IMG/VR virus record: IMGVR_UViG_3300009169_000018
Span: 1 to 64,000 of that record
Length of the DNA stretch: 64,000 bases
Direction: 5' to 3' (one strand)
From: an uncultured virus (IMG/VR IMGVR_UViG_3300009169_000018)
Taxonomy: Duplodnaviria; Heunggongvirae; Uroviricota; Caudoviricetes
Shown: positions 2,684 to 34,909 of the stretch, in pieces
How positions within the stretch are numbered: position 1 is the stretch's first letter
How the letters are laid out: every line of letters starts with the position of its first letter
Notes under the pieces: generated by a model
What the model was told of the DNA's origin: nothing
What the model saw: the letters and a program-made list of their open reading frames with translations, nothing else
The model's database searches: none
Made by a program: the position numbers and the translations under genes

Positions 2684-3051
2684 ACAGACTAGAAGAACTA
2701 CTCACCATCCTTTCCGAAGAATGTGCCGAAGTCTCGCAAGTGGCATCCAAGTGCGTGCGCTTCGGATTGGAATCTGAATATAATGATCGCACTAATCGTG
2801 ATCGTCTTGAATGGGAGATTGGTGACTTCATGGCAATGGTGCGATTGCTCACCGAAGAGTATAATCTCAATATGGACAACATCATTGCCGCAGCCGACGC
2901 GAAGCTTGTCAAGGTTGAGAAGTTCATGCGCAACAAAAAGGGATTGAGCGCACCGGAACTCGCGGCAGCATTCTCGCAGCGCACCCTGCCGCCACTGGCA
3001 CCCATCGAAAAGCCGCACAGACGCGGAAAACCCCGGTCAAATAAGCGGTAA
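2680..3051 (+). CDS. MazG-like NTP pyrophosphohydrolase
   Basis: EECAE...EIGD motif. Confidence 0.7.
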   Translation: MNRLEELLTILSEECAEVSQVASKCVRFGLESEYNDRTNRDRLEWEIGDFMAMVRLLTEEYNLNMDNIIAAADAKLVKVEKFMRNKKGLSAPELAAAFSQRTLPPLAPIEKPHRRGKPRSNKR

Positions 3052-3055
3052 TTCG

Positions 3056-3115
3056 TAAGTCCTTGATTCCTAAAGAGTTTCTCTTATTGCTTAGTTCTTA
3101 GTCTTCCTGTAGACT
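3056..3115 (+). promoter_or_regulatory. IHF-like box plus sigma70 promoter
   Basis: TAAGTCCTTGATT at 3056; TTGCTT(3087)-17-TAGACT(3110). Confidence 0.65.
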
Positions 3116-3153
3116 TATCTTATAGGTTGATGATTTCAAGCAAGGACTAACAG

Positions 3154-4032
3154 ATGCCGCGTGGCGTACCGAAAGCGGGTTTCCGCATGACAAAGAATCG
3201 AAAGGCTCGCAAGGGTGGCAAAGTCACCAATTCCGTGACCTTCGACAATGCGGCAATGTATCGCGAGCCTGAGATTCAGGAAACCGAAGACCAGATTCGG
3301 AACAAGCTTGATGAACGCTTTTCGGCAATGACCATGATGGTCGAGTCAGCCATCAAGGGTGACGTTCGCGCCATCATTTTCTCCGGTCCTGCCGGTGTCG
3401 GCAAGTCGCATGAAGTGCACGCTGCACTGGACCGACTCAAGCCGTATCACACGATCATTCACGGTTTCGTTCGCCCGACCGGTCTGTACCGTACCCTGTA
3501 CGAATACCGTCAGCCGGGTTCGGTTGTCGTCCTTGACGATGCCGACTCAATCTTTGGCGACGACATTTCGCTGAACATCCTCAAGGTCGCGTGCGACACT
3601 ACGCGCAAGCGTGAGATTTCTTGGCTCTCCGAGATTCGCATGGAAGATGAAGGTGGCGACAAGCTCCCGCGTTCCTACGAATTCGAAGGCACGATCATCT
3701 TCATTACGAATCAGGACTTCGACTACCTGATCGAAAAGGGCAACAAGCTTGCGCCGCATATGTCGGCTCTTGTTTCCCGGTCCATGTACCTCGACATGAA
3801 AATGCATTCGAAGCGCGACTACATCGTGCGCATCAAGCAAGTTCTCGAAAAGGGCATGTTGAAGGATTACGGTCTTTCGAAGCAGGATGAAACGGAAATC
3901 ATGGACTTCATTACGAAGTATCAGGATACCATCCGCGAACTCTCGCTGCGCATGGTGGTCAAGCTTGCGAACCTCAAGAAGTCGCGTCCGACTAAGTGGT
4001 ATTCGCTCGCTAAGGTCTTCTGCGTCAAGTAA
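3154..4032 (+). CDS. AAA+ family ATPase
   Basis: Walker A GPAGVGKS, Walker B VVVLDDAD, sensor ITN. Confidence 0.85.
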   Translation: MPRGVPKAGFRMTKNRKARKGGKVTNSVTFDNAAMYREPEIQETEDQIRNKLDERFSAMTMMVESAIKGDVRAIIFSGPAGVGKSHEVHAALDRLKPYHTIIHGFVRPTGLYRTLYEYRQPGSVVVLDDADSIFGDDISLNILKVACDTTRKREISWLSEIRMEDEGGDKLPRSYEFEGTIIFITNQDFDYLIEKGNKLAPHMSALVSRSMYLDMKMHSKRDYIVRIKQVLEKGMLKDYGLSKQDETEIMDFITKYQDTIRELSLRMVVKLANLKKSRPTKWYSLAKVFCVK

Positions 4033-4852: not shown

Positions 4853-5533
4853 ATGGGTACTCGTTCACTCACGTACATTTGGGAAGACAAGGCTGAAAAG
4901 CCGTTCCTGTGCATGTATCGGCAGTTCGATGGATACAAGGAAGGTCACGGCAAGGAACTCGCTGAATTCCTCGCGCCTATCACAATGATCAACGGCATCG
5001 GTGGACAGAAAGCCGGTGAAGCTGCGAATGGCATGGGTTGCCTCGCTGCGCAGTTGGTCACGCATTTCAAGGGACCGCACGGCATCGGCGGCTTCTATCT
5101 GCACGCTCCGGATCTTCCGCAGGATGCAGGACAGGAATACGAATATCACGTTGCGCCGAATCGCGTGACGGTATACGAGATTCACTTCGAAGCACCGAAT
5201 GACTGTATCTTTGTCGGTACGTGGAAGGCATTCGCAGAATGGGCAGGCGCGGAAGTTGTCGCTGCCAAGGTCGCAGTCGAAGATGAACGCACGCTGCCGG
5301 AACTTTTCAAAGCCGGTGAGACTGTGCACGTTCGCTTCCGCAAGGCAGACGGCACGATCCGCGACATGCGCTGCACAAAGAACTTTGACCGCATTCCGGA
5401 AGACATGCATCCCGGCGCGAGCGGTCGCATCGGTCGCAACGATCCGCATCTGTTCAAGGTCTATGACCTCGACAAGCAGGACTGGCGTTCCTTCCGTGAT
5501 AACACGGTCATTTCATTCGGAGTATCATCATGA
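4853..5533 (+). CDS. two-domain protein with C-terminal WYL_2/DUF2693-like (Sm-like) domain
   Basis: VRFRKADGTIRDMRCT...VYDLDKQDWRSFR motif; GGAG RBS. Confidence 0.7.
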   Translation: MGTRSLTYIWEDKAEKPFLCMYRQFDGYKEGHGKELAEFLAPITMINGIGGQKAGEAANGMGCLAAQLVTHFKGPHGIGGFYLHAPDLPQDAGQEYEYHVAPNRVTVYEIHFEAPNDCIFVGTWKAFAEWAGAEVVAAKVAVEDERTLPELFKAGETVHVRFRKADGTIRDMRCTKNFDRIPEDMHPGASGRIGRNDPHLFKVYDLDKQDWRSFRDNTVISFGVSS

Positions 5534-5695
5534 CCGCACGACTTCTTAAGTACGCACTGTACGGACTGTTGGGGTTCGAACTGTCACAGGTGGGCGCGGG
5601 ATTGGATAACCCTCTGTGGTTCTTCGCAATCCTGATCACCGTGCTGATCATCGAACAACTCGGCATCATTCAGGCAACCTCGCGGAGATTCTAAT

Positions 5696-8773: not shown

Positions 8774-8850
8774 GCAAAGGTCGTCTAACGGTTTAGGATA
8801 CTAGACTTTCAATCTGGAAGATGCGGGTTCGAATCCCGTCCTTTGCTCCA
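8774..8850 (+). tRNA. tRNA-Glu(TTC)
   Basis: Cloverleaf, GGTTCGAATCC, CCA. Confidence 0.9.
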
Positions 8851-8880
8851 ATTCTCAGAGCGCGACTAAATGCGCGTTCG

Positions 8881-8963
8881 GTAATGTGTCGGGAAAAGAG
8901 CGGTGCAATTCCGCAGTCACCTTCGGGTGTCAGTAAGTGTAATCAGGTGCACGTTCCCATTGT
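8881..8963 (+). ncRNA. circularly permuted tRNA-like RNA (YrlA-like topology)
   Basis: GGGAA/TTCCC closing stem; T-arm, then TTCG-capped acceptor-like stem, then D-arm. Confidence 0.6.
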
Positions 8964-8969
8964 TTCTAT

Positions 8970-9045
8970 TCCGGGTTGACTAGAGTGGTAATAGCCGCGA
9001 CTGTTAATCGCGTACTCGTAGGTTCGATCCCTACACCCGGAGCCA
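8970..9045 (+). tRNA. tRNA-Asn(GTT)
   Basis: Cloverleaf, CCA. Confidence 0.9.
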
Positions 9046-9049
9046 ACAT

Positions 9050-9125
9050 GCGTAGGTAATTCAACGGCTAGATTGCTTCCCTGTCACGGAAGATTATGCG
9101 GGTTCGAATCCCGTCTTACGCGCCA
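9050..9125 (+). tRNA. tRNA-Asp(GTC)
   Basis: Cloverleaf, CCA. Confidence 0.9.
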
Positions 9126-9236
9126 ACTTCGTAGTATGACCTACGTAAGATGTATTCCCGCTCGCAAAAGCGTAGGAGCATCCGGTGTCAAAGTCGCAGG
9201 GGGTTGCGTATCCTGATAAAACGCAAGACGAATTCC

Positions 9237-9310
9237 GGGGAGTTAGTATAACGGGATTATTTCTCGCTTGCACCGAGAAGACAAGGGTTCGATTCCCTTA
9301 CTCTCCACCA
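9237..9310 (+). tRNA. tRNA-Ala(TGC)
   Basis: Cloverleaf, G3:U70, CCA. Confidence 0.9.
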
Positions 9311-9315
9311 ACAAC

Positions 9316-9392
9316 GGGTCTGTCGTATAACGGCATATTATATCCGGCTCTTAACCGGTAAGATTAGGGTTCGATTCCCTACAGACCCACCA
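9316..9392 (+). tRNA. tRNA-Lys(CTT)
   Basis: Cloverleaf, CCA. Confidence 0.9.
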
Positions 9393-9397
9393 ATCAT

Positions 9398-9484
9398 GAG
9401 CGTAACACCCAATAGGAAGGGTATCGGGCTGTAACCCCGAAGTCGGCTAGTTCCGTGTAGGTTCGACTCCTACTGCGCTCACCA
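9398..9484 (+). tRNA. tRNA-Tyr(GTA)
   Basis: Cloverleaf with long variable arm, CCA. Confidence 0.9.
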
Positions 9485-9489
9485 ATTTT

Positions 9490-9584
9490 GTTCCTGTAGT
9501 TTAACGGTAGAACACCACCCTTATAAAGTGGCATTGTCGCCAGATTAGCGAACGGTCTAGGTTCGAATCCTAGCAGGAACACCA
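9490..9584 (+). tRNA. tRNA with TAT anticodon (Ile) and long variable arm
   Basis: Loop CTTATAA; ~25 nt variable region; CCA. Confidence 0.8.
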
Positions 9585-9592
9585 GTAGATTT

Positions 9593-9669
9593 CGGAGTGT
9601 AGCTCAGTCTGGTAGAGCACTGCGTTTGGGGCGCAGGTGTCCAAAGTTCGAATCTTTGTACTCCGACCA
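9593..9669 (+). tRNA. tRNA-Pro(TGG)
   Basis: Cloverleaf, CCA. Confidence 0.9.
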
Positions 9670-9675
9670 ATTTTT

Positions 9676-9754
9676 GCGAGTGTAGCAGAATCGGCATATG
9701 CGGGACACTTAAAACGTCCGTCACTTGTGGGTTCGACTCCCACTACTCGCACCA
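9676..9754 (+). tRNA. tRNA-Leu(TAA), short variable region
   Basis: Cloverleaf, CCA. Confidence 0.85.
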
Positions 9755-9974
9755 GAACTTGCGCGAACGCTAGGGATGACAACCCAAGGTCTTGCTCGTC
9801 ACAAGACTGTTAGTAACGCAACGTATAAAGCGGAGCGCGGAAATCGCGTTCGCAAACAGAATGATAGAGCCACCGGTAAAACTCCGGTCCTTGATAGACT
9901 AGCAAGCTACAAGGTAGTTCAAGAGGTCAACGCTTCGCAGCAAAGACCGCGACAGAACACTATCGCATATTTAC

Positions 9975-10048
9975 GCGGGGTTGGCATAATGGTTGTGTCC
10001 AAGTCTTCCAAACTTGTTACGCGGGTTCGATTCCCGCACTCCGCTCCA
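9975..10048 (+). tRNA. tRNA-Gly(TCC)
   Basis: Cloverleaf, TCCA end. Confidence 0.9.
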
Positions 10049-10052
10049 ATTC

Positions 10053-10128
10053 GCCCTTATAGCATAACGGAAAGTGCGTCGGGTTTCTACCCCGTTCGGT
10101 GTGGGTTCGATTCCTACTGAGGGCACCA
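10053..10128 (+). tRNA. tRNA-Arg(TCT)
   Basis: Cloverleaf, CCA. Confidence 0.9.
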
Positions 10129-10138
10129 ATTATTCAAT

Positions 10139-10215
10139 GCGCCTGTGACGGAACTGGCATACGTGTTAGTCTTAGAAGCTAAATTTTGTGGGTTCGACTC
10201 CCACCGGGCGCACCA
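10139..10215 (+). tRNA. tRNA-Leu(TAG), short variable region
   Basis: Cloverleaf, CCA. Confidence 0.9.
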
Positions 10216-10222
10216 ATTTCAT

Positions 10223-10296
10223 GTGGGATAAGTGTTACGGTAGCACAATAGTCTCCAAAACTACTAGCGGGGGTTCGACTCCCTCATCCCACGCCA
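10223..10296 (+). tRNA. tRNA-Trp(CCA)
   Basis: Cloverleaf, CCA. Confidence 0.9.
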
Positions 10297-10301
10297 ACAT
10301 C

Positions 10302-10377
10302 GGGTCCATGACGTAACGGCTAGCGTATCGGGCTTTTACCCCGTAAAGTCAGAGTTCGAATCTCTGTGGACCCACCA
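10302..10377 (+). tRNA. tRNA-Lys(TTT)
   Basis: Cloverleaf, CCA. Confidence 0.9.
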
Positions 10378-10556
10378 AAAAAGGTAGCTCGTAGCTTCCT
10401 AGAGAGTTAGTGCCGCTGCCGGTGCGAGTAGTTAGCCAACACTACTGCGCAGCAGAGAACGGTACTAACGATCTTCAATAGCGCGATAGATAGCTTCGCG
10501 GGTGTTAGCGGGTATGGTAGGAAATGACCGTATCAAAAACCCGCCGCGAATTCAAT

Positions 10557-10631
10557 GCCGGTGTCTTCTAATGGCTAGGAACGTCAGCCGATTACTGACT
10601 AATGGGGGTTCGATTCCTCTCACCGGTACCA
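10557..10631 (+). tRNA. tRNA-Ile(GAT)
   Basis: Cloverleaf; atypical loop CCGATTA; CCA. Confidence 0.8.
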
Positions 10632-10636
10632 ACTTT

Positions 10637-10711
10637 GCCCTTGTATTTCAACGGACAGAATACGACGCTACGAACGTCATGATGGGGGTTCGATTCCCTC
10701 CGAGGGTACCA
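10637..10711 (+). tRNA. tRNA-Arg(ACG)
   Basis: Cloverleaf, CCA. Confidence 0.9.
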
Positions 10712-10716
10712 ACTTT

Positions 10717-10791
10717 GTCTCTATAGTGTAATGGATAACACGCAACTCTCCGAAGGTTGTAATTCAGGCTCGACTCCTGATAGGGACACCA
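10717..10791 (+). tRNA. tRNA-Arg(CCG)
   Basis: Cloverleaf, CCA. Confidence 0.85.
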
Positions 10792-10835
10792 AACACAATG
10801 CCGCAAAAATGGGGAAACCTGTTGCGTGGCTCTCC

Positions 10836-10910
10836 GGTGATATCGTACAACGGCTAGTACAGGAGTCTCATAAGCTCTTAATGATGGTTCGATTCCATCT
10901 TTCACCACCA
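10836..10910 (+). tRNA. tRNA with CAT anticodon (Met or Ile2)
   Basis: Cloverleaf, CCA; not initiator-type. Confidence 0.85.
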
Positions 10911-10917
10911 ATTCAAT

Positions 10918-10992
10918 GCCGTCATAGTATAATGGCGATTACGTCTGTCTTGTAAGCAGACTATCTCAGTTCGATTCTGAGTGACGGCTCCA
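10918..10992 (+). tRNA. tRNA-Thr(TGT)
   Basis: Cloverleaf, CCA. Confidence 0.9.
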
Positions 10993-10997
10993 AATAT

Positions 10998-11073
10998 GTA
11001 AGCGTGGCAGACCGGCAGATGCATCGGATTGCAAACCCGATTTAAGCGAGTTCAATTCTCGCCGCTTACTCCA
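10998..11073 (+). tRNA. tRNA-Cys(GCA)
   Basis: Cloverleaf, U73, CCA. Confidence 0.9.
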
Positions 11074-11079
11074 AACAAT

Positions 11080-11153
11080 GCCCGATTCGTAAAATGGTAT
11101 TACCTCGCTTTTACACGGCGAAGTCGGCAGTTCGATCCTGTCATCGGGTACCA
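11080..11153 (+). tRNA. tRNA-Val(TAC)
   Basis: Cloverleaf, CCA. Confidence 0.9.
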
Positions 11154-11162
11154 ACAAACAAT

Positions 11163-11238
11163 AGCGAAAGAGTGAAACGGTTTACATTCTAGCCTCATAA
11201 GCTAGAGACATTGGGTTCGACTCCCATGATCGCTACCA
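11163..11238 (+). tRNA. tRNA with CAT anticodon (Met or Ile2), imperfect acceptor stem
   Basis: Cloverleaf, CCA. Confidence 0.75.
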
Positions 11239-11243
11239 ACAAC

Positions 11244-11317
11244 GTCCGATTAGCTTAAAAGTGAAGCACAGACCTGATAAGTCTGAGAAGTAGGAGCATT
11301 ACCTACATTGGACACCA
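11244..11317 (+). tRNA. tRNA-Ile(GAT), non-canonical T-loop
   Basis: All stems pair; T-loop AGCATTA; CCA. Confidence 0.8.
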
Positions 11318-11403
11318 ACTACATTCAGCGCACGAAAAGGTAAGTAGTGCGGTCTTGCGTCAACAAGGCGAGTTGTATCTTGACGGATATGATGACTGCG
11401 TGC

Positions 11404-11478
11404 GCCGCCATAGTATAACGGTTATTACAAGGTCTTGGTAAGACTTGAATCACAGTTCGATTCTGTGTGGTGGCACCA
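11404..11478 (+). tRNA. tRNA-Thr(GGT)
   Basis: Cloverleaf, CCA. Confidence 0.9.
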
Positions 11479-11561
11479 ATTCAATTCAGCACTCGTTCAT
11501 TTTCGCGAATGTTCGAAGCTACTGTGAAAGTCAGTCGTCGGTAGCGCGATAGCTACGCCAT

Positions 11562-11635
11562 GCGGGTATGATGTATTGGTTGCCTAGAACTTTGCCAAAG
11601 TTCATGAACGGGTTCGATTCCCGTTACCCGCTCCA
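11562..11635 (+). tRNA. tRNA-Gly(GCC)
   Basis: Cloverleaf, TCCA end. Confidence 0.9.
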
Positions 11636-11637
11636 AT

Positions 11638-12252
11638 TCAACACGGATCGTATCTGTAATCCAAGCGATACAGGTCTTCGATCCCGCGTCTTAGATCGTC
11701 GGTAACAACGAGGTCTGTTATGAAGTTCGGCTTCTCGTTCTCAACGGGAATGTCGATTGCCGTATCACCACCGAAGATGCCGATAAGTCTTCTGGCTTCC
11801 GATTCGAAGTCATGATAGTTGAGTACGTTCATGTTCGGATGGTCAAACCATGCGGACTGCGGCTTGAAGCCGAGAATGTTAGTGCGGTTGATCCGCTCCA
11901 ACAAATCCACCGGCTGACGATTGATCTTCTCTCTTAGGTGTTGCGGCAGCGCGTTGAATGACTCTTCATCCAATGGCTCTGGCATGACGACACCAGAGAA
12001 GTCTTCCGGAAAAAGTTTGAACAGGACGGTTCGATACGTGCGCAGAAAGTTGTACGTGGATACGAAACGTTCTACAGGGTCGCGCCAGAAAGCGTAACCC
12101 GTCAGTGCTAAATACGCGGGACTTGGAGTGTCATGAATGTGAACAGCAACATTCGTCCCAAGCGGTCTTAGCAGATTTCGAATGGTAGTCGAACCAGTCT
12201 TCGGCACCAGATAGAAAATGTATTTGTTATCGTGACTGACGATCATACTCAT
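11638..12252 (-). CDS. sulfotransferase family protein
   Basis: PAPS-binding motifs PKTGSTT and RDPVERFVS. Confidence 0.8.
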   Translation of the reverse strand: MSMIVSHDNKYIFYLVPKTGSTTIRNLLRPLGTNVAVHIHDTPSPAYLALTGYAFWRDPVERFVSTYNFLRTYRTVLFKLFPEDFSGVVMPEPLDEESFNALPQHLREKINRQPVDLLERINRTNILGFKPQSAWFDHPNMNVLNYHDFESEARRLIGIFGGDTAIDIPVENEKPNFITDLVVTDDLRRGIEDLYRLDYRYDPC

Positions 12253-12374
12253 ATTTAGGGGAAGAGAAATGTTCCAAGAAAGAAATAGAGCATACTACCT
12301 AAGACAAGCGCGAGCATGTTTCAAGGCAGGCTTGATCTTTCTGAAACGTTCGGTCTTCCTCCCCAAGAGATAAT

Positions 12375-12450
12375 GTCCTCTAAACTAATCTAGTGAAAGT
12401 GCAAGTTTGAAAAACTTGAGAGGTTGGAGCGTAACCAACAGAGGACACCA
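12375..12450 (+). tRNA. tRNA-Phe(GAA), non-canonical T-loop
   Basis: T-loop AGCGTAA; CCA. Confidence 0.8.
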
Positions 12451-12556
12451 CATTTCCTACGTCACTGAAATTGAACGTAGCGTAATAGAGTCAACAGATG
12501 AAACGACCTCCCTAGTGGTGCACTCAATAGTGCTGAAAAAATCTGTCGAATACAAT

Positions 12557-12633
12557 GCACCGGTCTTCTAACAGGATAGGAAAACAGATTCTCAATCTGT
12601 GCAATGACGGTTCGAATCCGTTCCGGTGCGCCA
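12557..12633 (+). tRNA. tRNA-Glu(CTC)
   Basis: Cloverleaf, CCA. Confidence 0.85.
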
Positions 12634-12708
12634 ACCAATCGTCCCGCGCATAGCTCGACAGCGCATGTGTACACATGGGCAGAATCAACTGCCGGGATGA
12701 CCAGATAA

Positions 12709-12783
12709 CAGGATGTAAGTCAAAAGCAGACGACCTCGCTTGGAACGAGGAGGTAGGTGGAGCGTTACCACCCATCCTGACCA
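12709..12783 (+). tRNA. tRNA-Pro(TGG), non-canonical T-loop
   Basis: T-loop AGCGTTA; CCA. Confidence 0.8.
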
Positions 12784-12926
12784 ACATCTTGCGTACATTT
12801 TCTAGAGGGTGTACGTGAGGACTTGAAAGTAGCCGACTGGCAAATTACGATTCAAGCGTCACGCCCTTTACGATACAGGGCGACTCATTCAGAAAGTAGT
12901 TCATATGGACTACTAAGTAGATCAAT

Positions 12927-13003
12927 GGTGCCGGTAGCATAATGGTTAATGCCCAAGACTGTGAATCTTGAAGATGCGGGTTCGAATCCCGTCCAGCACC
13001 CCA
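12927..13003 (+). tRNA. tRNA-His(GTG)
   Basis: G-1:C73, cloverleaf, CCA. Confidence 0.9.
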
Positions 13004-13022
13004 AACACAAACGGAGTTTCCC

Positions 13023-13202
13023 ATGGCAGCGAAGAACGATGTAACAGGCGATAGCATAAAAACTAAGACCGGCAACTCTAATGCATATGCAAAGGGTTGG
13101 GATCGTATCTTCAAGAAAGGGAAAGCCAAGAAAGGTGAAGAACTAACAGTGTGCGTTGCAAAGCGCGGCGTTGGTAAGTCAACCTTCAACAAGAACAATT
13201 GA
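13023..13202 (+). CDS. 59-aa small basic protein (MAAKNDVTGDSIKTK...GWDRIF)
   Basis: Read by hand; GGAG RBS; below ORF-track cutoff. Confidence 0.65.
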   Translation: MAAKNDVTGDSIKTKTGNSNAYAKGWDRIFKKGKAKKGEELTVCVAKRGVGKSTFNKNN

Positions 13203-13277
13203 CCACATGCGGTACCGGTATCTGCACCTTGTCTTTGAAACAAGATTTTCTAGGTTCGAATCCTAGGTGGTCAGCCA
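13200..13277 (+). tRNA. tRNA-Gln(TTG)
   Basis: U1-A72, G73, CCA. Confidence 0.8.
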
Positions 13278-13409
13278 ATTTCTCTCGCGAGGAAAAACAA
13301 CGAATCGTACTACGTTGTAAAACAAGGGTACGCAACCATGTGCTGAAAGCAGACGGCTAACGTGCTGTCTCTTCCTTCGGGAAGTGGAGTAAGAGTGGTG
13401 GTAGTAAGC

Positions 13410-13486
13410 GATTCTAAGATAGTTCAATCAGGTAGAACAACCTCACGCTAAGAGGGAGACAGAGGTTCAAATCCTCACTAGAATCC
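13410..13486 (+). ncRNA. aberrant tRNA-like element (no CCA)
   Basis: D-arm and GGTTCAAATCC T-arm present; offset acceptor stem; loop ACGCTAA. Confidence 0.55.
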
Positions 13487-13524
13487 GGACGCAGCTTCCA
13501 AGAATGCCAAATGCGTCCAACTTT

Positions 13525-13598
13525 TCTCGGCTCGTCTAACGGCAGGACGCAACACTCTGAATGTTGCTATCGAGGTTCGAATCCTTGGCTGAGAACCA
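13525..13598 (+). tRNA. tRNA-Gln(CTG)
   Basis: Cloverleaf, CCA. Confidence 0.9.
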
Positions 13599-13638
13599 AA
13601 CATACATACTCTTGAGTGACCCTCAAGAGGATTACAAG

Positions 13639-14181
13639 ATGGAACCGATTCAAGTGATGTACGAAGGCGACCTCGCCCCTCTGATTGAGTGGGCTGAGAA
13701 TGGCGACAGGGATCGCGACGGATTAGGCTTCGCGCCTGAACCGTTCTACTCATGGGTGCGCAATCACATGCCGCCCTACTGTCGCGGATTCGTTACGAAC
13801 ACCATCGGGTACATAACGGAGAATGGAATCTTCGACGGTGATTGGGTTAAGGGATATCCACATATCCATACCACAACGATGTTTTGGGAACCCGAGATAT
13901 ACACCATCATCACCTATCTGATCGTACCCGAAGAGGGTGGCGAATTCGCGATGGGTGGATTGGAACGGAACGATCCGTACACTTTGATTCCGGTCAAGCC
14001 GGGATTGTCCATCGGGTGTGATTCAATCACATGGCATGGAGTCAAGCAAGTACGAAAGGGAAAGCGCGTTGCGATAGTGACGGCAGGCTTTCCATCACAA
14101 GAGTACCAGAAGAAATGTCTGGCACTGAGAAACGAGAACAAAGGAAGGTTGCGCGAGAGGCTTATGCGCCCTGTTTGCTAA
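13639..14181 (+). CDS. 2OG-Fe(II) oxygenase-like protein
   Basis: YL...GGEF, WHGV...GKR motifs; GAGGA RBS. Confidence 0.7.
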   Translation: MEPIQVMYEGDLAPLIEWAENGDRDRDGLGFAPEPFYSWVRNHMPPYCRGFVTNTIGYITENGIFDGDWVKGYPHIHTTTMFWEPEIYTIITYLIVPEEGGEFAMGGLERNDPYTLIPVKPGLSIGCDSITWHGVKQVRKGKRVAIVTAGFPSQEYQKKCLALRNENKGRLRERLMRPVC

Positions 14182-14230
14182 ACAGAGGGATGTAACAGTC
14201 ACAGAGGTTCGAATCCTCTACCTTCCGCCA
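14143..14230 (+). tRNA. tRNA-Ser(GCT)
   Basis: Long variable arm, G73, CCA. Confidence 0.9.
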
Positions 14231-14235
14231 AATTT

Positions 14236-14325
14236 GGAAGATTGACCGAGAGGCTTATGGTTCCCGCTTGGAAAGCGGTGAGTGGGGAAACCTACACACA
14301 GGTTCAAATCCTGTATCTTCCGCCA
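14236..14325 (+). tRNA. tRNA-Ser(GGA)
   Basis: Long variable arm, CCA. Confidence 0.9.
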
Positions 14326-14330
14326 CATAT

Positions 14331-14404
14331 GGTTCTGTCGTATAGAAGCAATACACGGCATTGACATTGCTGAAAAGATGGAGCGTTACCATCCAGAACC
14401 ACCA
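14331..14404 (+). tRNA. tRNA-Val(GAC), non-canonical T-loop
   Basis: T-loop AGCGTTA; CCA. Confidence 0.8.
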
Positions 14405-14410
14405 ACTAAA

Positions 14411-14498
14411 GGAAGGTTGGCAGAGAGGCTAATTGCCGCTGTTTCGAAAGCAGATGGGTGTAAAAACCACACAGGTTCAAATCCTGTACCTTCCGCCA
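14411..14498 (+). tRNA. tRNA-Ser(CGA)
   Basis: Long variable arm, CCA. Confidence 0.9.
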
Positions 14499-14504
14499 GA
14501 CAAT

Positions 14505-14581
14505 GCGAGTGTGATGTAACTGGCAAACGTGATCGGCTCAAACCCGATTTTTTGTGGGTTCGAATCCCACCACTCGCACCA
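14505..14581 (+). tRNA. tRNA-Leu(CAA), short variable region
   Basis: Cloverleaf, CCA. Confidence 0.9.
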
Positions 14582-14585
14582 ATAC

Positions 14586-14662
14586 GCGCCTATGACGGAA
14601 CAGGCATACGTCTAACGTTGAGAACGTTAGTTTTGTGGGTTCGAATCCCACTAGGCGCACCA
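14586..14662 (+). tRNA. tRNA-Leu(GAG), short variable region
   Basis: Cloverleaf, CCA. Confidence 0.9.
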
Positions 14663-14778
14663 AACATTGAGAGTATGGAAATTACTCAATGAAATTGGAC
14701 TAGGTGAGGATGGAACGTTGCTAGTACGTACACGGAATACCATAACTGTTTAGTCGCCGGAACCATAACCGGAACAAT

Positions 14779-14974
14779 TTACTGAGTCGAGCTAACGCAG
14801 GCAACTGAGGAAGTTCGCGACTCTCGCCAAGGTCGCGTGGGAGGCTAACGCCGTCTAACCACCGTGACACAGAGAGCAACACAAACAGAACGTGGGAAAC
14901 CTTGGCTTATACGTTCGGGTTGTGGCAAAGATGAATGTTAGCATAGAACAGAATCGCGGCTACGGACTCAGTAA
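14779..14974 (+). ncRNA. rnpB: minimal RNase P RNA
   Basis: P1 TTACTGAGTC/GACTCAGTAA; CR-I GAGGAAGTTCGCG and CR-V AACAGAATCGCGGCTA forming P4. Confidence 0.8.
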
Positions 14975-14982
14975 TTTCAATA

Positions 14983-15059
14983 GCTGACCCATACGTGTCG
15001 AAAGCTCTTTAGGCAAGACTTGCGGAAGTCGAAATACGCAAGTTAGACGGTGGGTTGGC
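14983..15059 (+). ncRNA. Y-RNA-like small RNA candidate
   Basis: Terminal stem GCTGACCCAT/GTGGGTTGGC with GTCGAAAG opposite TAGAC. Confidence 0.45.
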
Positions 15060-15068
15060 GGTACCTAT

Positions 15069-15145
15069 ACCCTTGTAGTTTCAACGGACAGAACACCCCG
15101 GTCCTAACGGGTCCAATGCAGGTTCGAATCCTGTCGAGGGTACCA
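15069..15145 (+). tRNA. tRNA-Arg(CCT)
   Basis: Cloverleaf, CCA. Confidence 0.9.
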
Positions 15146-15152
15146 CATATTC

Positions 15153-15227
15153 GCTGTCATCGTATAATGGCTATTACGGATGTTTCGTAAGCATCCTATC
15201 TCAGTTCGACTCTGAGTGACAGCACCA
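15153..15227 (+). tRNA. tRNA-Thr(CGT)
   Basis: Cloverleaf, CCA. Confidence 0.9.
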
Positions 15228-15231
15228 GTTT

Positions 15232-15319
15232 GGAAGACTAACTCAACAAGGTTGGGACTCGCCTTGAAAGCGATGGGATGCCTAACGGCATTGGGGCGCG
15301 ATACCTCAGTCTTCCGCCA
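15232..15319 (+). tRNA. tRNA-Ser(TGA), atypical T-loop
   Basis: Long variable arm; T-loop CGCGATA; CCA. Confidence 0.8.
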
Positions 15320-15324
15320 AGTTA

Positions 15325-15386
15325 GGGGAAACTTTCAGCAAATCAAACAAACTTTACCTGTAATAAAGCAAAAGCGTTTCCCGCCA
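15325..15386 (+). ncRNA. stem-CAGCAAA small RNA with anticodon-like hairpin
   Basis: GGGAAAC/GTTTCCC stem, CAGCAAA, CTTTA-CCTGTAA-TAAAG, ends GCCA. Confidence 0.5.
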
Positions 15387-15390
15387 AATT

Positions 15391-15508
15391 AGAAAGCGTA
15401 CAGCAAACCAAAATTCTCTACGAAAGACCTAGACCGGTTCGACTCCGGAATGCTCCACCAATGCGAAGGGGCTTTAGTGTAACGGCAGCACATGAAAAAA
15501 CGCTTTCT
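15391..15508 (+). ncRNA. stem-CAGCAAA RNA enclosing a circularly permuted tRNA
   Basis: AGAAAGCGT/ACGCTTTCT stem; anticodon-like loop, T-arm, 3' acceptor with ACCA, 5' acceptor, D-arm in permuted order. Confidence 0.7.
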
Positions 15509-15554
15509 GTCTTTCCTAAATAGCCCTATAGTTTCGACTTTGAGGGCTATCCCA

Positions 15555-15872
15555 ATGACCACAAAATTCTCTCCCATGACCATCCTAGGGTCTGTCATGT
15601 CGCTCGCGGCATTCGCAAGCCTTGTGATCGGGTTCAATTCCTACTTCATGCCCCGCGCCGAAGCCGACGAAATCATCGGTAAGGTGACACGGCAGCAACA
15701 GGTAGACCGCGTGGAGACTGACCTCACCGTGATCGAACTGGAAATGAAGTTTCTAGAAGAGACTCTGGAAGACGATCCGGACAACGCGAAGGCGCGGAAG
15801 CGTCTGGAATATCTAGAGAAGCGTCTTCTGGTTCTGGAAGAGTACCAGTTAGAGCTACAGAGCGGCGACTAA
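15555..15872 (+). CDS. membrane-anchored coiled-coil protein
   Basis: N-terminal TM, heptad Leu pattern; CTAAATA upstream. Confidence 0.6.
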   Translation: MTTKFSPMTILGSVMSLAAFASLVIGFNSYFMPRAEADEIIGKVTRQQQVDRVETDLTVIELEMKFLEETLEDDPDNAKARKRLEYLEKRLLVLEEYQLELQSGD

Positions 15873-17837: not shown

Positions 17838-18194
17838 ATGACTGATCATCACACTCCATTCTGGATTGAAGGGCTGTACGTTCTCAACGAGGGCGAGCTT
17901 GCCCGTCAGACTCTTACCGAGACTCGCATCTATCGCGGCAACGATCCGCGATGCGTAATTCTCGGCGGCGATGCCTATTGGCAGTGGAGCGAGTTCGGTC
18001 CCTACAGAAACCACAATCAGGGTTTTTGTTGGACTCAGGCTCTTCACGATGGACTTGAGGGTTGGCATTCGACCATCTTCCATGCGGACGAGAATCCCCG
18101 ATTCTGTGTGCATCCGCAGCATCCCGACTATGCGCACGTTGCGCGGATTTGGGATTTGGTCAACGCGAACGTGTTCGTTCCGAAGGATTGGTAA
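17838..18194 (+). CDS. hypothetical protein, probably leaderless
   Basis: ATG begins 7 nt after the -10 hexamer, no RBS. Confidence 0.55.
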   Translation: MTDHHTPFWIEGLYVLNEGELARQTLTETRIYRGNDPRCVILGGDAYWQWSEFGPYRNHNQGFCWTQALHDGLEGWHSTIFHADENPRFCVHPQHPDYAHVARIWDLVNANVFVPKDW

Positions 18195-18198
18195 GATT

Positions 18199-18651
18199 AT
18201 GGCTATCCTATATATTGTGAGGGGCGTGTCCGGTTCGGGCAAGTCTACTCTGGCTCGCGAAATGGCATCTAAGCTTGGCTTGGAACACTATGAAGCGGAC
18301 CAGTGGTTTGAGCGGGATGGAGTCTACAACTTCGATCCTCGCGAACTACAGAATGCGCACGCGGCTTGCTTGGAAAATGCAATGTACGCTATGCGACATT
18401 TGGGCGGGTGTATCGTGTCCAACACGTTCACTCGCCTTTGGGAGATGCGAAACTATCTCGACTTTGCCGCAGAACTCGGCTGTCAGATTCGCATCATAAC
18501 GTGCCGTGGGCAGTATCAGAATACGCACGGCTTGAGTGACAAGGACGTTGAAAAGCAGCGTGCGCGTTTCCAGAGCAATCTACAGATTGCCAAGGAATTG
18601 CAGTATGATCGGCAACGGTTCGGAATGATCGTCTTTTCGAACCATGGATAA
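18199..18651 (+). CDS. polynucleotide kinase-like P-loop protein (AAA_33)
   Basis: RGVSGSGKST, EAD, VSNTFT motifs. Confidence 0.8.
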   Translation: MAILYIVRGVSGSGKSTLAREMASKLGLEHYEADQWFERDGVYNFDPRELQNAHAACLENAMYAMRHLGGCIVSNTFTRLWEMRNYLDFAAELGCQIRIITCRGQYQNTHGLSDKDVEKQRARFQSNLQIAKELQYDRQRFGMIVFSNHG

Positions 18652-19540
18652 TGAAATGCACTTAGTTGATAGACAGTTGCGTGAGTTTGCTGAGTCCCAT
18701 CCGGACTTAGTTTCCGTTCGCATGTCAGTTCGCCATCCGCGTCTGCGAGTGGTGAAGTACAAGCCGAAGGTTTTCTACAAGGCACTCTGGACTCCTGAGT
18801 TGTGCGAAATGCGCGGCTTAGTTGTGGACGAGGATTGGAACGTCATCGTGCGCCCTTTCCGCAAGATCTTCAACCGCTTCGAATCCGGTACCGATTTCCC
18901 GTTGGATGCCGAAGTTGCGGCTGCGCGTAAGGTCAACGGCTTCATGGCAGCGTTGACGATGGATGATGAATACGGCTTGATTGTTTCGACAACGGGTTCG
19001 TTGGATTCGCCATTCGTTACCATGGCTGAGAAGTATCTGCTGCCGTTGAAGGATTCCGGTCTGATCAACGGTGTTACGTATCTCTTCGAAATCGTGGATC
19101 CAGAGGATCCGCACATTGTCGAAGAGAAGGTTGGCGCATACCTGATTGGTGCGCGTGCGGTCTGTTCAAAGATCACGCTCCTAGAGTGTGACCTAGACGA
19201 GATTGCAAAGGGAATGGGTGTGTTGCGTCCGGAATGGAAGCGTGCATCGTTTCGCGAGATAGTCGAAGAGACTAAGACTTGCAAGCATGAGGGATTCGTT
19301 TGCTACAACGTAGAGAACGGACATGCTCTTAAGATCAAGTCTCCATACTATCTGGTTAAGAAGTTCTTCGCTCGCGTGCGTGCGGAGAAGCTAACGGCAG
19401 ATTGGCTACAGGCTAATCGCCACAACTTTGATGAAGAGTTTTACGGATTGATTGACTATATCTCGGACAACCGGGATCAGTTCACCACAATGGATCAAGA
19501 GGGGCGCAAGTCCTTCATCGAACACTTTTTGTCGTTATGA
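18644..19540 (+). CDS. T4 Rnl1-type RNA ligase
   Basis: EMRG, PF.KIFN, KVNG (motif I), FEIV, EGFV, KIKS..Y. Confidence 0.85.
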   Translation: MDNEMHLVDRQLREFAESHPDLVSVRMSVRHPRLRVVKYKPKVFYKALWTPELCEMRGLVVDEDWNVIVRPFRKIFNRFESGTDFPLDAEVAAARKVNGFMAALTMDDEYGLIVSTTGSLDSPFVTMAEKYLLPLKDSGLINGVTYLFEIVDPEDPHIVEEKVGAYLIGARAVCSKITLLECDLDEIAKGMGVLRPEWKRASFREIVEETKTCKHEGFVCYNVENGHALKIKSPYYLVKKFFARVRAEKLTADWLQANRHNFDEEFYGLIDYISDNRDQFTTMDQEGRKSFIEHFLSL

Positions 19541-23200: not shown

Positions 23201-24259
23201 ATGAGCAAGCAAACACACATGTCCGTGTTCATCGGACGCTTTCAGCCGCCACACAAGGCGCACATCGAAACCATCACTCGCGCATTGGAATTCTCCGACA
23301 AGGTGCTAATTCTAATCGGTTCGGCATTCAAGCCATCCGACACGCGCAATCCGTTCCCCGCAGCAGAACGCCGGGAAATGATCCAGACTTGCTTTAATCT
23401 GGAAACGCAAAAGCGACTCGTATTCGACTATATCTCCGACCATCCATACAACGATCTTGCGTGGGTGAAGAATGTCCAGACCGCAATCGACAAGGCTTAC
23501 TATGACAACTTCGGTTGGCAGGACAAGGCTGACATTACGCTGATCGGACACCACAAAGACGAGTCCACGTATTATCTCGACCTCTTCCCGTCTTACAAGC
23601 AAGCGGAAATGGAGAACATCTACGGTCTGGATTCCACGACCATCCGTGAACTCTACTTCGCAGGCAAGGATGCGTGGAAGAACAGCAACATGAAGCGTGT
23701 CGCGCAGTTCGTTCCGCAGCCGGTCATGAACTACATCACCAATCACATGAAGCTGATCGCGTATGATCGTCTTGTGCGCGAATTCGAATTCCTTCGCACC
23801 TACAGGCTACAGTGGTCGCAGGCTCCGTATCCACCAGTGTTCGTCACTGCGGATGCCGTTGTCACCAACATGGGACACGTTCTACTCGTTCGCCGCAAGT
23901 CCGCACCGGGAGAAGGTCTGTGGGCAATGCCGGGAGGTTTCCTCAATCAGTACGAAACGCTGCGTGAGTGTGCGAATCGCGAACTAGAGGAAGAGACTAA
24001 GATCAAGGTTCCGCCGCGAGTCCTCGACGGTTCAATCGTCAAGGAAAAGCGATACGATCATCCCGGTCGCTCGCTGCGCGGACGCACGATCACAACCGCA
24101 TTTCACTTCGATCTACATGAACGGACTATGCCGAAGGTTCGCGGCTCAGATGACGCTGCGCAAGCCAAGTGGGTTCCGTTGGCTGAATTCATCAAGATGC
24201 AAGCCGTCATGTACGAAGACCACTATTCAATCATCACCGACCTTCTAGGTTTGGGCTGA
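23201..24259 (+). CDS. nadM: bifunctional NMN adenylyltransferase / ADP-ribose Nudix hydrolase
   Basis: [19 protein letters not shown]; Nudix box GG...E....A.RELEEET. Confidence 0.95.
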
Positions 24260-24301
24260 GATAGACTTAGCCCCGTTTCAACAGCAGATAAGGAGTTTAT
24301 C
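24253..24301 (+). promoter_or_regulatory. two-hairpin leader motif, copy 2
   Basis: ATAGA-loop hairpin plus RBS-sequestering hairpin. Confidence 0.65.
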
Positions 24302-25675
24302 ATGCGTACCAATCTTCTACTTAACACCGACTCGTACAAGGCTTCCCACTGGCTCCAATACCCACCGGGAACAGAGTACGTCTATTCATACATCGAATCT
24401 CGCGGCGGTCTTCATGACGCGACCGTGTTCTTCGGTCTACAGGCATTCGTAAAAGAATACCTGATCGGCGGCGTGTTTACTCAGGATGACATTGAGGAAG
24501 CCGCAGCGTTCTTTGCCGCACATGGCGAACCGTTCAATCGTGAGGGATGGGAATACATCCTGCGCGAATACGGTGGCAAGCTGCCAATCGAAATCAAGGC
24601 ACTGCCAGAAGGTCTGCGCGTTCCTGTGCGCACTCCGCTAGTCACCATCGTCAACACAGACCCGAAGTGCTTCTGGTTGACCTCGTATCTGGAAACCGCA
24701 CTGCTTCGCGCAGTCTGGTATCCGACGACTGTTGCGACAATCTCACACTACATCAAGACCATCATCAAGCGTGAACTGGAAGAGACAGGCGACCTCGCCG
24801 GTCTGCCGTTCAAGCTACATGACTTCGGTGCGCGTGGCGTATCGTCCAACGAATCCGCAGCCCTCGGTGGCATGGCGCATCTGGTCAACTTCCAAGGCTC
24901 CGACACGGTTCAGGGTGTAGTCGCGGCGGCTCGTTACTACAACGAGAAGATGGCAGCGTTCTCCATCCCCGCAGCCGAGCATTCCACGATTACTACGTGG
25001 GGTAAGACTCGCGACGGTGAGACTGCGGCATACTACAACATGATTCAGAAGTACAGCAAGCCGGGAAGCATCTTCGCAGTTGTTTCTGACTCCTACGATA
25101 TCTTCAAGGCGTGCGAAGAGATTTGGGGTGGAAGCCTCAAGGATGCCGTAATTGCTCACGGTGGTACTCTGGTCATCCGTCCTGACTCCGGTGATCCGGT
25201 TGCTGTCACACTTCGCTGCGTCCAGATTCTTGACGAGAAGTTCGGCAGCACTCGCAATGACAAGGGATTCAAAGTCCTCAATCACGTTCGACTCATTCAG
25301 GGTGACGGTGTGAATCCTTCAAGCATCGAAGCCATCCTGATGAACTTCAAGGCACATGGCTACAGCGCAGACAACATTGCGTTCGGCATGGGCGGCGCGT
25401 TGCTCCAACACATGAACCGTGACACACAAGAGTTCGCAATGAAGGCGAGCGCAGTCATGGTCAACGGTGAATGGCGGGACGTATCCAAGTCACCTGTCGG
25501 TCAGGCTTCGAAAAAGTCGAAAGGTGGACGTTTCTCGGTGGTTATGGAAGGCGGTCGCCTGATAACCATCGGTTATGACGAGACTGAGGAAGACTACTTG
25601 AGAACCGTTCTCATCAACGGGAAACTGGTACGGGACATGACACTAAGCCAGATTCGCTACAATACGAGCCTCTAG
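24302..25675 (+). CDS. nadV: nicotinamide phosphoribosyltransferase (NAMPT)
   Basis: TDSYKASH, HDFGARG, PAAEHS, RPDSGDP, QGDG, FGMGG. Confidence 0.95.
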   Translation: MRTNLLLNTDSYKASHWLQYPPGTEYVYSYIESRGGLHDATVFFGLQAFVKEYLIGGVFTQDDIEEAAAFFAAHGEPFNREGWEYILREYGGKLPIEIKALPEGLRVPVRTPLVTIVNTDPKCFWLTSYLETALLRAVWYPTTVATISHYIKTIIKRELEETGDLAGLPFKLHDFGARGVSSNESAALGGMAHLVNFQGSDTVQGVVAAARYYNEKMAAFSIPAAEHSTITTWGKTRDGETAAYYNMIQKYSKPGSIFAVVSDSYDIFKACEEIWGGSLKDAVIAHGGTLVIRPDSGDPVAVTLRCVQILDEKFGSTRNDKGFKVLNHVRLIQGDGVNPSSIEAILMNFKAHGYSADNIAFGMGGALLQHMNRDTQEFAMKASAVMVNGEWRDVSKSPVGQASKKSKGGRFSVVMEGGRLITIGYDETEEDYLRTVLINGKLVRDMTLSQIRYNTSL

Positions 25676-34429: not shown

Positions 34430-34540
34430 ATGGAACTATTACTAGGATTTGTCGCAGGCGCATTGGTGGGATGGCACTTCCCGCAGCCTGCATGGGTTAA
34501 GACTCTGATTGCGGCAGTGAAAGCCAAGCTAGCGGAGTAA
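34430..34540 (+). CDS. 36-aa membrane peptide (MELLLGFVAGALVGWHFPQPAW...)
   Basis: Read by hand; GGAGG RBS. Confidence 0.6.
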   Translation: MELLLGFVAGALVGWHFPQPAWVKTLIAAVKAKLAE

Positions 34541-34858
34541 TCGGTTATAGTGGTATGATGTGAAGTGAAGGTATTCTGGACGCGGGTTCGACTCCCGCCT
34601 GCTCCACCACGAAAGACTCTCACCCGAGATGCGCAGAAGTTGAGTTCTTACTGCGATACAAGGGAACAACACTCTGAGAGTCTTTCGTAATGGGGCAGTC
34701 AAGGTTTCGACAGGGTAAGATAGCGGAACGGACCACTAGAGAGGCGACTGACTTAATCAGCGCAAACACTACAAATGCAAACGCAGATGTATACGAGGAA
34801 GTGCGCCTAGCGGCGTGACCCTCCGGGGCAGGAAATGCCTTGTTACCAAAACCACCAG
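34541..34858 (+). ncRNA. ssrA: circularly permuted two-piece tmRNA; tag ANADVYEEVRLAA
   Basis: T-arm and CTGCTCCACCA end at 34609; intervening hairpin; GGGGCAG at 34692 (G3:U70); tag frame 34777-34818; outer ends approximate. Confidence 0.9.
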
Positions 34859-34909
34859 AAGGGGAGAGGGCAACCTCTCCCCGTCTTTACATGATGAAAG
34901 TCGCAACAC

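Follow-up and report, generated by a model that had tools for sequence, protein, structure and literature searches.

A putative miniature RNase P RNA of bacterial lineage encoded within the tRNA array of a T4-like phage

The stretch of DNA analysed here, referred to below as the window, comprises 64,000 nucleotides of an uncultured virus and belongs to a 75.5-kb IMG/VR virus contig estimated to be 44% complete. The record carries T4-like markers recognised by Pfam (gp32, gp59 and the baseplate proteins gp5, gp6, gp8 and gp53), together with genes for an Rnl1-type RNA ligase, an AAA_33 kinase-like protein, NAD salvage and PhoH. An array of tRNA genes extends over 8774-15227, all on the plus strand, with 35 genes called by ARAGORN and 36 by Rfam; the tRNA-Ile(UAU) at 9490-9584 is, with 95 nt, unusually long among class I tRNAs. 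The phage has about 40 tRNA genes in total, and within this cluster, near the 3' end of the array and on the same strand, lies the gene of a putative mini RNase P RNA (14779-14974, +, 196 nt), flanked by tRNA-Leu(GAG) upstream (14586-14662) and tRNA-Arg(CCU) downstream (15069-15145). The Rfam family RF00373 matches it over 14780-14973, and R1, a covariance model built from its relatives, matches it over 14779-14974 with 217.5 bits. Positions within the element, given in brackets after window coordinates, are window positions minus 14778.

The surroundings of the array hold further genes connected with RNA and nucleotide metabolism. Directly past the array, an AAA_33 kinase-like gene and a T4 Rnl1-type RNA ligase gene adjoin each other, and farther downstream there are a NUDIX/cytidylyltransferase-like fusion and a NAMPT-type phosphoribosyltransferase (17971-19540 and 23201-25675 for these genes together). 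The kinase-like protein and the ligase are a possible tRNA repair pair, and the fusion and the phosphoribosyltransferase possibly serve NAD salvage. At 34485-34886 (+) the window encodes a permuted two-piece tmRNA of betaproteobacterial type (RF04321, 124.1 bits; RF01850, 109.7 bits), whose tag peptide is ANADVYEEVRLAA; its type hints at a betaproteobacterial host.

The element proves to be a genuine gene for a structured RNA, homologous to RNase P RNA. When the 411-base spacer was scanned with cmscan under relaxed settings, the whole archaeal RNase P model (RF00373, positions 1-288) aligned to 14780-14973 with 49.3 bits and an E-value of 4.7e-13, which arithmetic rescaling to the whole window turns into about 7e-11. 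The type T model RF02357 gave a weak full-length match (26.3 bits, E 3.2e-5), and the bacterial class A model RF00010 gave no match on the record at E<=10. The gathering scores of these families are 84 (RF00373), 60 (RF02357) and 100 (RF00010), so that both scores of the element stay under gathering and no RNase P family was reported for it at the Rfam gathering threshold, although the E-values are nevertheless significant. The agreement greatly exceeds what could be expected by chance. The conserved blocks CR-I, CR-IV and CR-V are present in the correct order and follow the RF00373 consensus at 14807-14821, 14928-14937 and 14948-14963, and the corresponding blocks of a larger relative, L056, align to RF00010. 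Furthermore, the fold of the element is more stable than those of 200 out of 200 shuffled sequences (z -3.05).

The anatomy bears out every feature that had been read from the letters. P1 is the perfect 10-bp helix described there, in which the 5' strand 14779-14788 (1-10) pairs with 14965-14974 (187-196); across 41 sequences 92.9% of its cells are paired and 10/10 pairs change on both sides. P2 (14791-14796 with 14937-14942; 13-18 with 159-164) has 6 bp, is 99.6% paired and changes both sides in 5/6 pairs. It is followed by P3 (14798-14807; 20-29), a 3-bp stem with a GCAA tetraloop, which is 99.2% paired, changes both sides in 3/3 pairs and is drawn by RNAalifold too. The reported CR-I, GAGGAAGUUCGCGAC, is found at 14807-14821 (29-43) and contains the 5' strand of P4 (14812-14820), while the reported CR-V, ACAGAAUCGCGGCUAC, at 14948-14963 (170-185), aligned to the consensus ACAGAA..GGCUUA, contains its 3' strand (14954-14961). 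The compensated P4 pairing of GTTCGCGA (14813-14820) with TCGCGGC (14954-14960) was likewise recovered, and its register is that of bacterial class A: 34 pairs with 183, 35 with 182, 36 with 181, and 38-42 with 180-176, leaving U37 (14815) bulged. The T37 column is invariant in alignments A1 and A2. A register with U36 bulged was considered and dropped in favour of the class A register. This P4 pseudoknot of 8 pairs is 99.7% paired, and 5/8 pairs change both sides.

P5 (14821-14825 with 14872-14876; 43-47 with 94-98) is 97.6% paired, with both sides changed in 4/5 pairs. Next to it starts a second pseudoknot, P6, in which 14826-14832 (48-54) pairs with 14900-14906 (122-128) in the P16/17 loop; its 7 pairs are 82-86% paired and 6/7 change both sides. 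Between the P6 5' strand and the P5 3' strand, the specificity domain has shrunk to a remnant of 39 nt (14833-14871), which holds a 4-bp P7-like helix (14837-14840 with 14859-14862; 59-62 with 81-84; 99.4% paired) and, inside it, a single hairpin (14843-14852; 65-74; 94.8% paired). An extension of P7 (55-89, 56-88, 57-85) was only 59.8% paired and was dropped. The specificity region as a whole measures 46 nt, in place of 117 positions in the archaeal model and 140 in the class A model, and the full RNA 196 nt against 367 class A model positions, so the earlier statements that the RNA is about half the typical size and that most of the specificity domain is missing both hold. P8-P14 are absent save for the one hairpin, and CR-II and CR-III are absent as well.

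On the 3' side of P5, a 3-nt J5/15 linker, CAA (14877-14879), leads to P15 (14880-14883 with 14921-14924; 102-105 with 143-146), which never varies, and to P16/17 (14888-14893 with 14911-14916; 110-115 with 133-138), which is 92.9% paired with both sides changed in 5/6 pairs. The 3' side of L15 reads GGGU (14917-14920; 139-142), and the block 14877-14924 could be matched, by way of L056, to the class A consensus segments GCAA..AAAUAG.. and ..CGGGUa..GC. Among the loci found with the invariant-core pattern described below, L15 GGGU is fixed by the search pattern itself; it also occurs in the four sequence variants among the six homologues retrieved by a pattern that does not specify L15. CR-IV, AAGAUGAAUG, lies at 14928-14937 (150-159) and follows the RF00373 consensus. 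P18 is absent, about 2 nt separating P15 from CR-IV as against 23 positions in the class A model and 39 nt in L056. The core that is kept thus comprises P1-P6, P15-P16/17, CR-I, CR-IV and CR-V, the bulged U of P4 and the L15 GGU. At the level of homology and anatomy, these features support the element as a phage-encoded RNase P RNA of about half the normal size, from which most of the specificity domain is gone.

Relatives of the element are numerous, and they show selection on the fold. A first search pattern, composed of CR-I, CR-IV and CR-V with P4 left free, returned 15 viral loci, of which 6 are evident homologues, one of them identical to the window, and 9 are chance matches in coding-looking DNA (L002-L008, L014 and L016). 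A second pattern, built on the invariant core and including the L15 sequence, returned 63 viral contigs of up to 482 kb and at least 120 metagenome contigs; among 185,579 species genomes it hit only 2 short MAG contigs, L080 and L081. L081 fits R1 at 46.2 bits, L080 does not fit it, and no tRNA genes were found in either stretch. The distribution of the family is virus-specific. A cultured carrier was sought by blastn of the window region, L045 and L056 against 50,697 phage records, and nothing was found.

An alignment of 11 compact forms (A2, made with MAFFT, with helices drawn by hand) has 97.4% of cells paired, and 30/56 pairs change both sides, compared with 2-6 in controls in which the helices were slid. 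R1 was derived from this 11-sequence alignment with nested helices only, P4 and P6 being left out; it matches 63/63 of the core-pattern loci as well as the window, and 0/6 of the chance loci that were given to it as controls (L002, L003, L005, L007, L014 and L016). When 41 distinct strong R1 matches were aligned (A4), 95.2% of cells were paired and 42/56 pairs changed both sides, with a covariation score of 0.525 as against 0.056-0.073 for slid helices and 0/500 shuffles scoring as high. Because P4 and P6 stand outside R1, the fitting of the alignment cannot have favoured either pseudoknot. RNAalifold, unaided, recovered P1, P3, P5, P7, the hairpin, P15 and P16, and drew alternative pairs instead of P2 and P4; nearly all of these alternatives link invariant columns (one varies) and therefore carry almost no information. 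As to size, 21/41 of the strong matches fall within 194-206 nt. What look like "tandem copies" or "160-nt forms" in L088 and L090 are in fact one gene each, interrupted by a long insert in the hairpin and so read as two halves, and the lower bound observed is therefore 194-198 nt. This evidence also disposes of the least credible alternative, in which the element would be what is left of a host rnpB, captured and now decaying without any present function: it does score below all Rfam thresholds and has lost half of the molecule, but it is kept in the 63 viral and at least 120 metagenome contigs, its core motifs do not vary, its length has a sharp lower bound at 194-198 nt, and the compensatory changes in nearly every helix effectively refute decay.

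The larger members of the family indicate where the element comes from. GC-rich relatives, about 336-362 nt long, match class A across the whole model, with 86 bits for L056, 67.4 for L066, 61.1 for L061, 36.5 for L058 and 26.6 for L054, all of them below the gathering score of 100; L067 gave no RNase P match in the Rfam scan. The larger class A-matching relatives retain P18, and P18-like inserts occur in L040, L055 and L056, among others. Since these larger relatives are linked to the element by R1 and score on class A, the element is a reduced bacterial-type RNA that converges with the archaeal type T. The family thus forms a graded reduction of the bacterial class A RNA, and the window RNA stands at its small end. 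In L056, a complete 385-kb phage, the tRNA region also holds a GOLLD RNA (5187-5605, -, 212.3 bits) about 2 kb from the RNase P RNA.

Comparison with known systems is consistent with this placement. With class A (RF00010) the phage RNA shares P1-P6, P15-P16/17, the P4 register with its bulged U, CR-I, CR-V, a CR-IV of the AGAUGAAUG type, the 3-nt linker between P5 and P15 and the L15 GGU. It differs in measuring 196 nt rather than 367 positions, in being without P8-P14, P18 and CR-II/III, in a P3 of only 3 bp, in being a viral gene within a tRNA array and in being missed by the class A model. The type T RNAs of Thermoproteaceae (RF02357) are similar in size and likewise keep the catalytic domain intact with the specificity domain mostly gone. 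In passages of PMC5839562 they are modelled with P6 and without P18, and in passages of PMC3579882 their diagnostics are given as a 3-bp P2, a 2-nt P5/P15 linker and a P15 that has lost one pair. The phage RNA has, on the other hand, a P2 of 6 bp and a linker of 3 nt (CAA), which speaks for convergence with type T and against membership. Furthermore, type T RNAs work with archaeal proteins, whereas the phage RNA, with its class A descent, would use one bacterial protein.

A further parallel is found in the laboratory. According to the deletion work reported in passages of PMC5839562, the catalytic (C-) domain of the E. coli RNA retains activity by itself, but on a model substrate it falls about 500-fold short of the full RNA; no activity was detected there without P15-17, a P6-like contact helps, and P18 is dispensable once the specificity (S-) domain has been removed. 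The engineered Eco CP RPR of the same paper has, as far as those passages describe it, the same parts list as the phage RNA. It is a laboratory deletion, whereas the phage RNA is natural and selected and has a true 7-bp P6 and a P7 stub with a hairpin. In keeping P15-17 and P6 and dropping P18, the phage RNA matches exactly what those passages describe as needed and as dispensable. T4 itself offers a likeness of another kind: its rnaC and rnaD (species 1 and 2) are stable RNAs other than tRNAs and lie where the tRNA array ends, alike in phage type and position but not homologous to the phage mini RNase P RNA. When they were tried as degenerate RNase P RNAs, unfiltered R1 gave at best 9 bits on trivial hairpins, and no Rfam RNase P family matched at E<=10.

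As to the protein partner, no RnpA (PF00825) was found in the record of the window nor in the records of 5 relatives, two of which are 100% complete, namely G001, of 172.6 kb, whose compact form measures 196 nt, and G005, of 385 kb. An ORF of RnpA size past the array (15492-15872) encodes an acidic membrane/coiled-coil protein of no Pfam family and is not RnpA-like. The partner is thus likely to be host RnpA. With regard to expression, contigs of relatives in a sediment metatranscriptome (X1) resemble the window over 14777-14973 only, and in one of them 68 letters replace 10 in the hairpin loop. These contigs were rejected as a sign of transcription, given that depth is similar on nearby coding DNA and that such libraries can hold DNA; in three further runs (X2-X4) nothing was found on the element.

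Taken together, we consider it probable that the element is a mini bacterial-lineage RNase P RNA of a T4-like phage which would work with host RnpA, trim the 5' ends of phage pre-tRNAs and provide the phage with a supply of RNase P that is relaxed about its substrates. The element would probably be transcribed within a long transcript of the tRNA array and then trimmed back to the closed P1 stem. In the complete relative G001 the RNase P RNA gene starts 2-3 nt past the CCA of a tRNA, so that the RNA is likely to be transcribed together with the array and cut back to P1, and a scan of the array for promoters and terminators gave no excess (9 promoter-like sites versus 8.3 in shuffles). The predicted fold corresponds to the catalytic domain only, P1-P5 with the P4 pseudoknot and its bulged U, and P15-P16/17 fixed by the P6 pseudoknot. 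Such an RNA would most likely bind host RnpA, and the holoenzyme would most likely remove the 5' leaders of about 40 phage pre-tRNAs and probably that of the two-piece tmRNA of the phage too. Without an elbow domain, contacts with the substrate would be made through the acceptor stem, through base pairs between the 3'-RCCA and the L15 GGU and through the grip of the protein on the leader. The outcome would be an RNase P supply owned by the phage, with relaxed substrate requirements.

CCA is encoded by all 35 ARAGORN tRNAs of the window, which fits a reliance on L15-CCA pairing. Across the family CCA encoding is a mixed correlate of L15: 477/626 tRNAs flanking family members carry CCA, and 10/61 loci have almost no CCA-encoding tRNAs although their L15 is identical (the search pattern required L15). 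These CCA-poor loci are L019, L020, L023, L037, L049, L050, L060, L063, L065 and L077, with counts such as 0/23 and 1/24; in the clade of the window nearly all tRNAs encode CCA. Two further points weigh against the proposal. P3 is part of the usual protein-binding face of RNase P RNA, and the P3 of the element has only 3 bp. In addition, the roughly 500-fold weaker activity of C-domain constructs in passages of PMC5839562 implies that an enzyme without the specificity domain could be weak.

Whether the loss of the elbow-reading domain is related to particular substrates deserves separate consideration. The sequence-only reading had suggested that the small size suits elbow-variant tRNAs nearby, and five such tRNAs do occur in the window. 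They form cloverleaves with a non-canonical T-loop (AGCRUWA or CGCGAUA) and no D-loop GG, as judged by eye on their folds, and their anticodons were likewise read by eye: Ile-GAU (11244-11317), Phe-GAA (12375-12450), Pro-UGG (12709-12784) and Val-GAC (14331-14404), with the T-loops AGCAUUA, AGCGUAA or AGCGUUA, and a Ser-UGA-like class II tRNA at about 15231-15320 with the T-loop CGCGAUA. The Pro and Ser variants were called by neither ARAGORN nor Rfam, and 2/5 of the variants duplicate canonical tRNAs of the array. The elbow is canonical in 33/35 ARAGORN tRNAs of the window and in both neighbouring tRNAs of the element, and no more than 6/61 distinct family loci have variant T-arms in their vicinity (8 variant versus 453 canonical, counted in 3-kb flanks only), which disfavours elbow variants as the general reason for the family. 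The suggestion therefore stands for the presence of such tRNAs in the window and falls short for the family at large.

A second class of candidate substrates lies within the RNase P RNA genes themselves, since the hairpin loop is the site of inserts in relatives, ranging from 10 to about 200 nt. In L032 (gene 2953-3245, -) a tRNA at 3088-3167 (-; Rfam, 42.8 bits) sits within the vestigial specificity hairpin and is flanked by an 11-bp extension of the stem. Inserts of about 110-156 nt which start with GGGG, end with ACCA and have a 12-bp closing stem occupy the same hairpin in L024 (gene 1957-2298, -), L033 (338-681, +), L073 (2757-3099, +) and L026 (2953-3254, -), with a T-arm in the first three; other long inserts are found there in L028, L042, L048, L088 and L090. 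In the window, a free-standing look-alike of these passengers at about 15322-15470 starts with GGGG, carries a T-arm and ends with GCUCCACCA. Its mean column identity to the L024 and L073 inserts is 58%, its fold is no better than those of shuffles (z +1.0), and its match to the Rfam permuted tmRNA is weak (E 0.95).

These observations bear on the rival that survives best, an active RNase P specialised on substrates that the host would handle badly, namely variant-elbow tRNAs and the tmRNA-like mini-RNAs or tRNAs inside the gene of relatives. Losing the elbow-reading domain would remove discrimination against variants, and five variant tRNAs in the window, the tRNA inside the L032 gene, the tRNA-like passengers of L024, L033 and L073 and the look-alike in the window all speak in its favour. 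We nevertheless regard it as unlikely, in view of the canonical majority in the window (33/35) and the mere 6/61 loci with variant T-arms; most family members, moreover, are without a passenger (194-206 nt in 21/41 strong matches). A broader reading, in which many large phages would possess their own minimal, elbow-blind RNase P that uses host RnpA, treats canonical, variant and tmRNA-like substrates alike and tolerates tRNA or tmRNA-like genes in its hairpin, is offered tentatively, as less likely than not. If it were true, some RNase P genes would hold their own substrates, and the RNA might be cut into a two-piece ribozyme joined by the flanking stem.

Supply of activity by the phage could also be turned around: an RNA that is inactive or a poor catalyst might have the job of binding host RnpA, sequestering or redirecting it so that host tRNA maturation is shut down or reprogrammed. 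The catalytic domain that is kept is the protein-binding half of RNase P RNA, and with no rnpA in the phage any protein partner must be that of the host. The weak catalysis of type A RNAs without an S-domain, reported in passages of PMC5839562, points the same way. Against such a capture of RnpA, conservation is strongest at residues of chemistry and substrate contact (U37, CR-I, CR-IV and CR-V, the J5/15 block and L15 GGGU), and a phage with about 40 tRNAs needs more RNase P activity, not less; we give this reading rather little credence. Less still attaches to a mini-RNA that dispenses with host RnpA and acts either by itself or together with a phage protein that has escaped recognition. The phage records are free of RnpA homologues, the P3 is very short and many phage ORFs have no Pfam family, all of which would suit it, but no candidate partner was found, the ORF at 15492-15872 being unlike RnpA, and bacterial RNase P RNAs are known to need the protein in vivo. 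That makes it a very improbable reading, and a phage-encoded RNase P RNA served by host RnpA remains the one that we prefer.

To our knowledge, RNase P RNA has been treated as a strictly cellular, essential gene. In a literature search covering mostly open-access journals, no paper describing an RNase P RNA of a phage or virus was found. Two papers checked by a term search (PMC12636597 and PMC2996960) had nothing relevant to phage RNase P RNA in the parts covered, and in the searched passages of a 2024 review (PMC11143913) phage tRNAs figure solely among the substrates of the RNase P of the host.

For annotation, the consequence is that the whole family is missed at standard Rfam thresholds. 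Its small size also makes the RNA amenable to direct kinetic, mutational and structural work, for which any bacterial RnpA could be used. Furthermore, the forms of 194-198 nt represent a natural experiment on an old question, that of the smallest bacterial-type RNase P kept by evolution, and the parts that they keep (P4, P6, P15-17) and have lost (S-domain, P18) agree with the published deletion work as described in passages of PMC5839562. Above all, a virus-encoded RNase P RNA, present on at least 120 environmental contigs, would extend the takeover of translation by large phages to the maturation of tRNA 5' ends.
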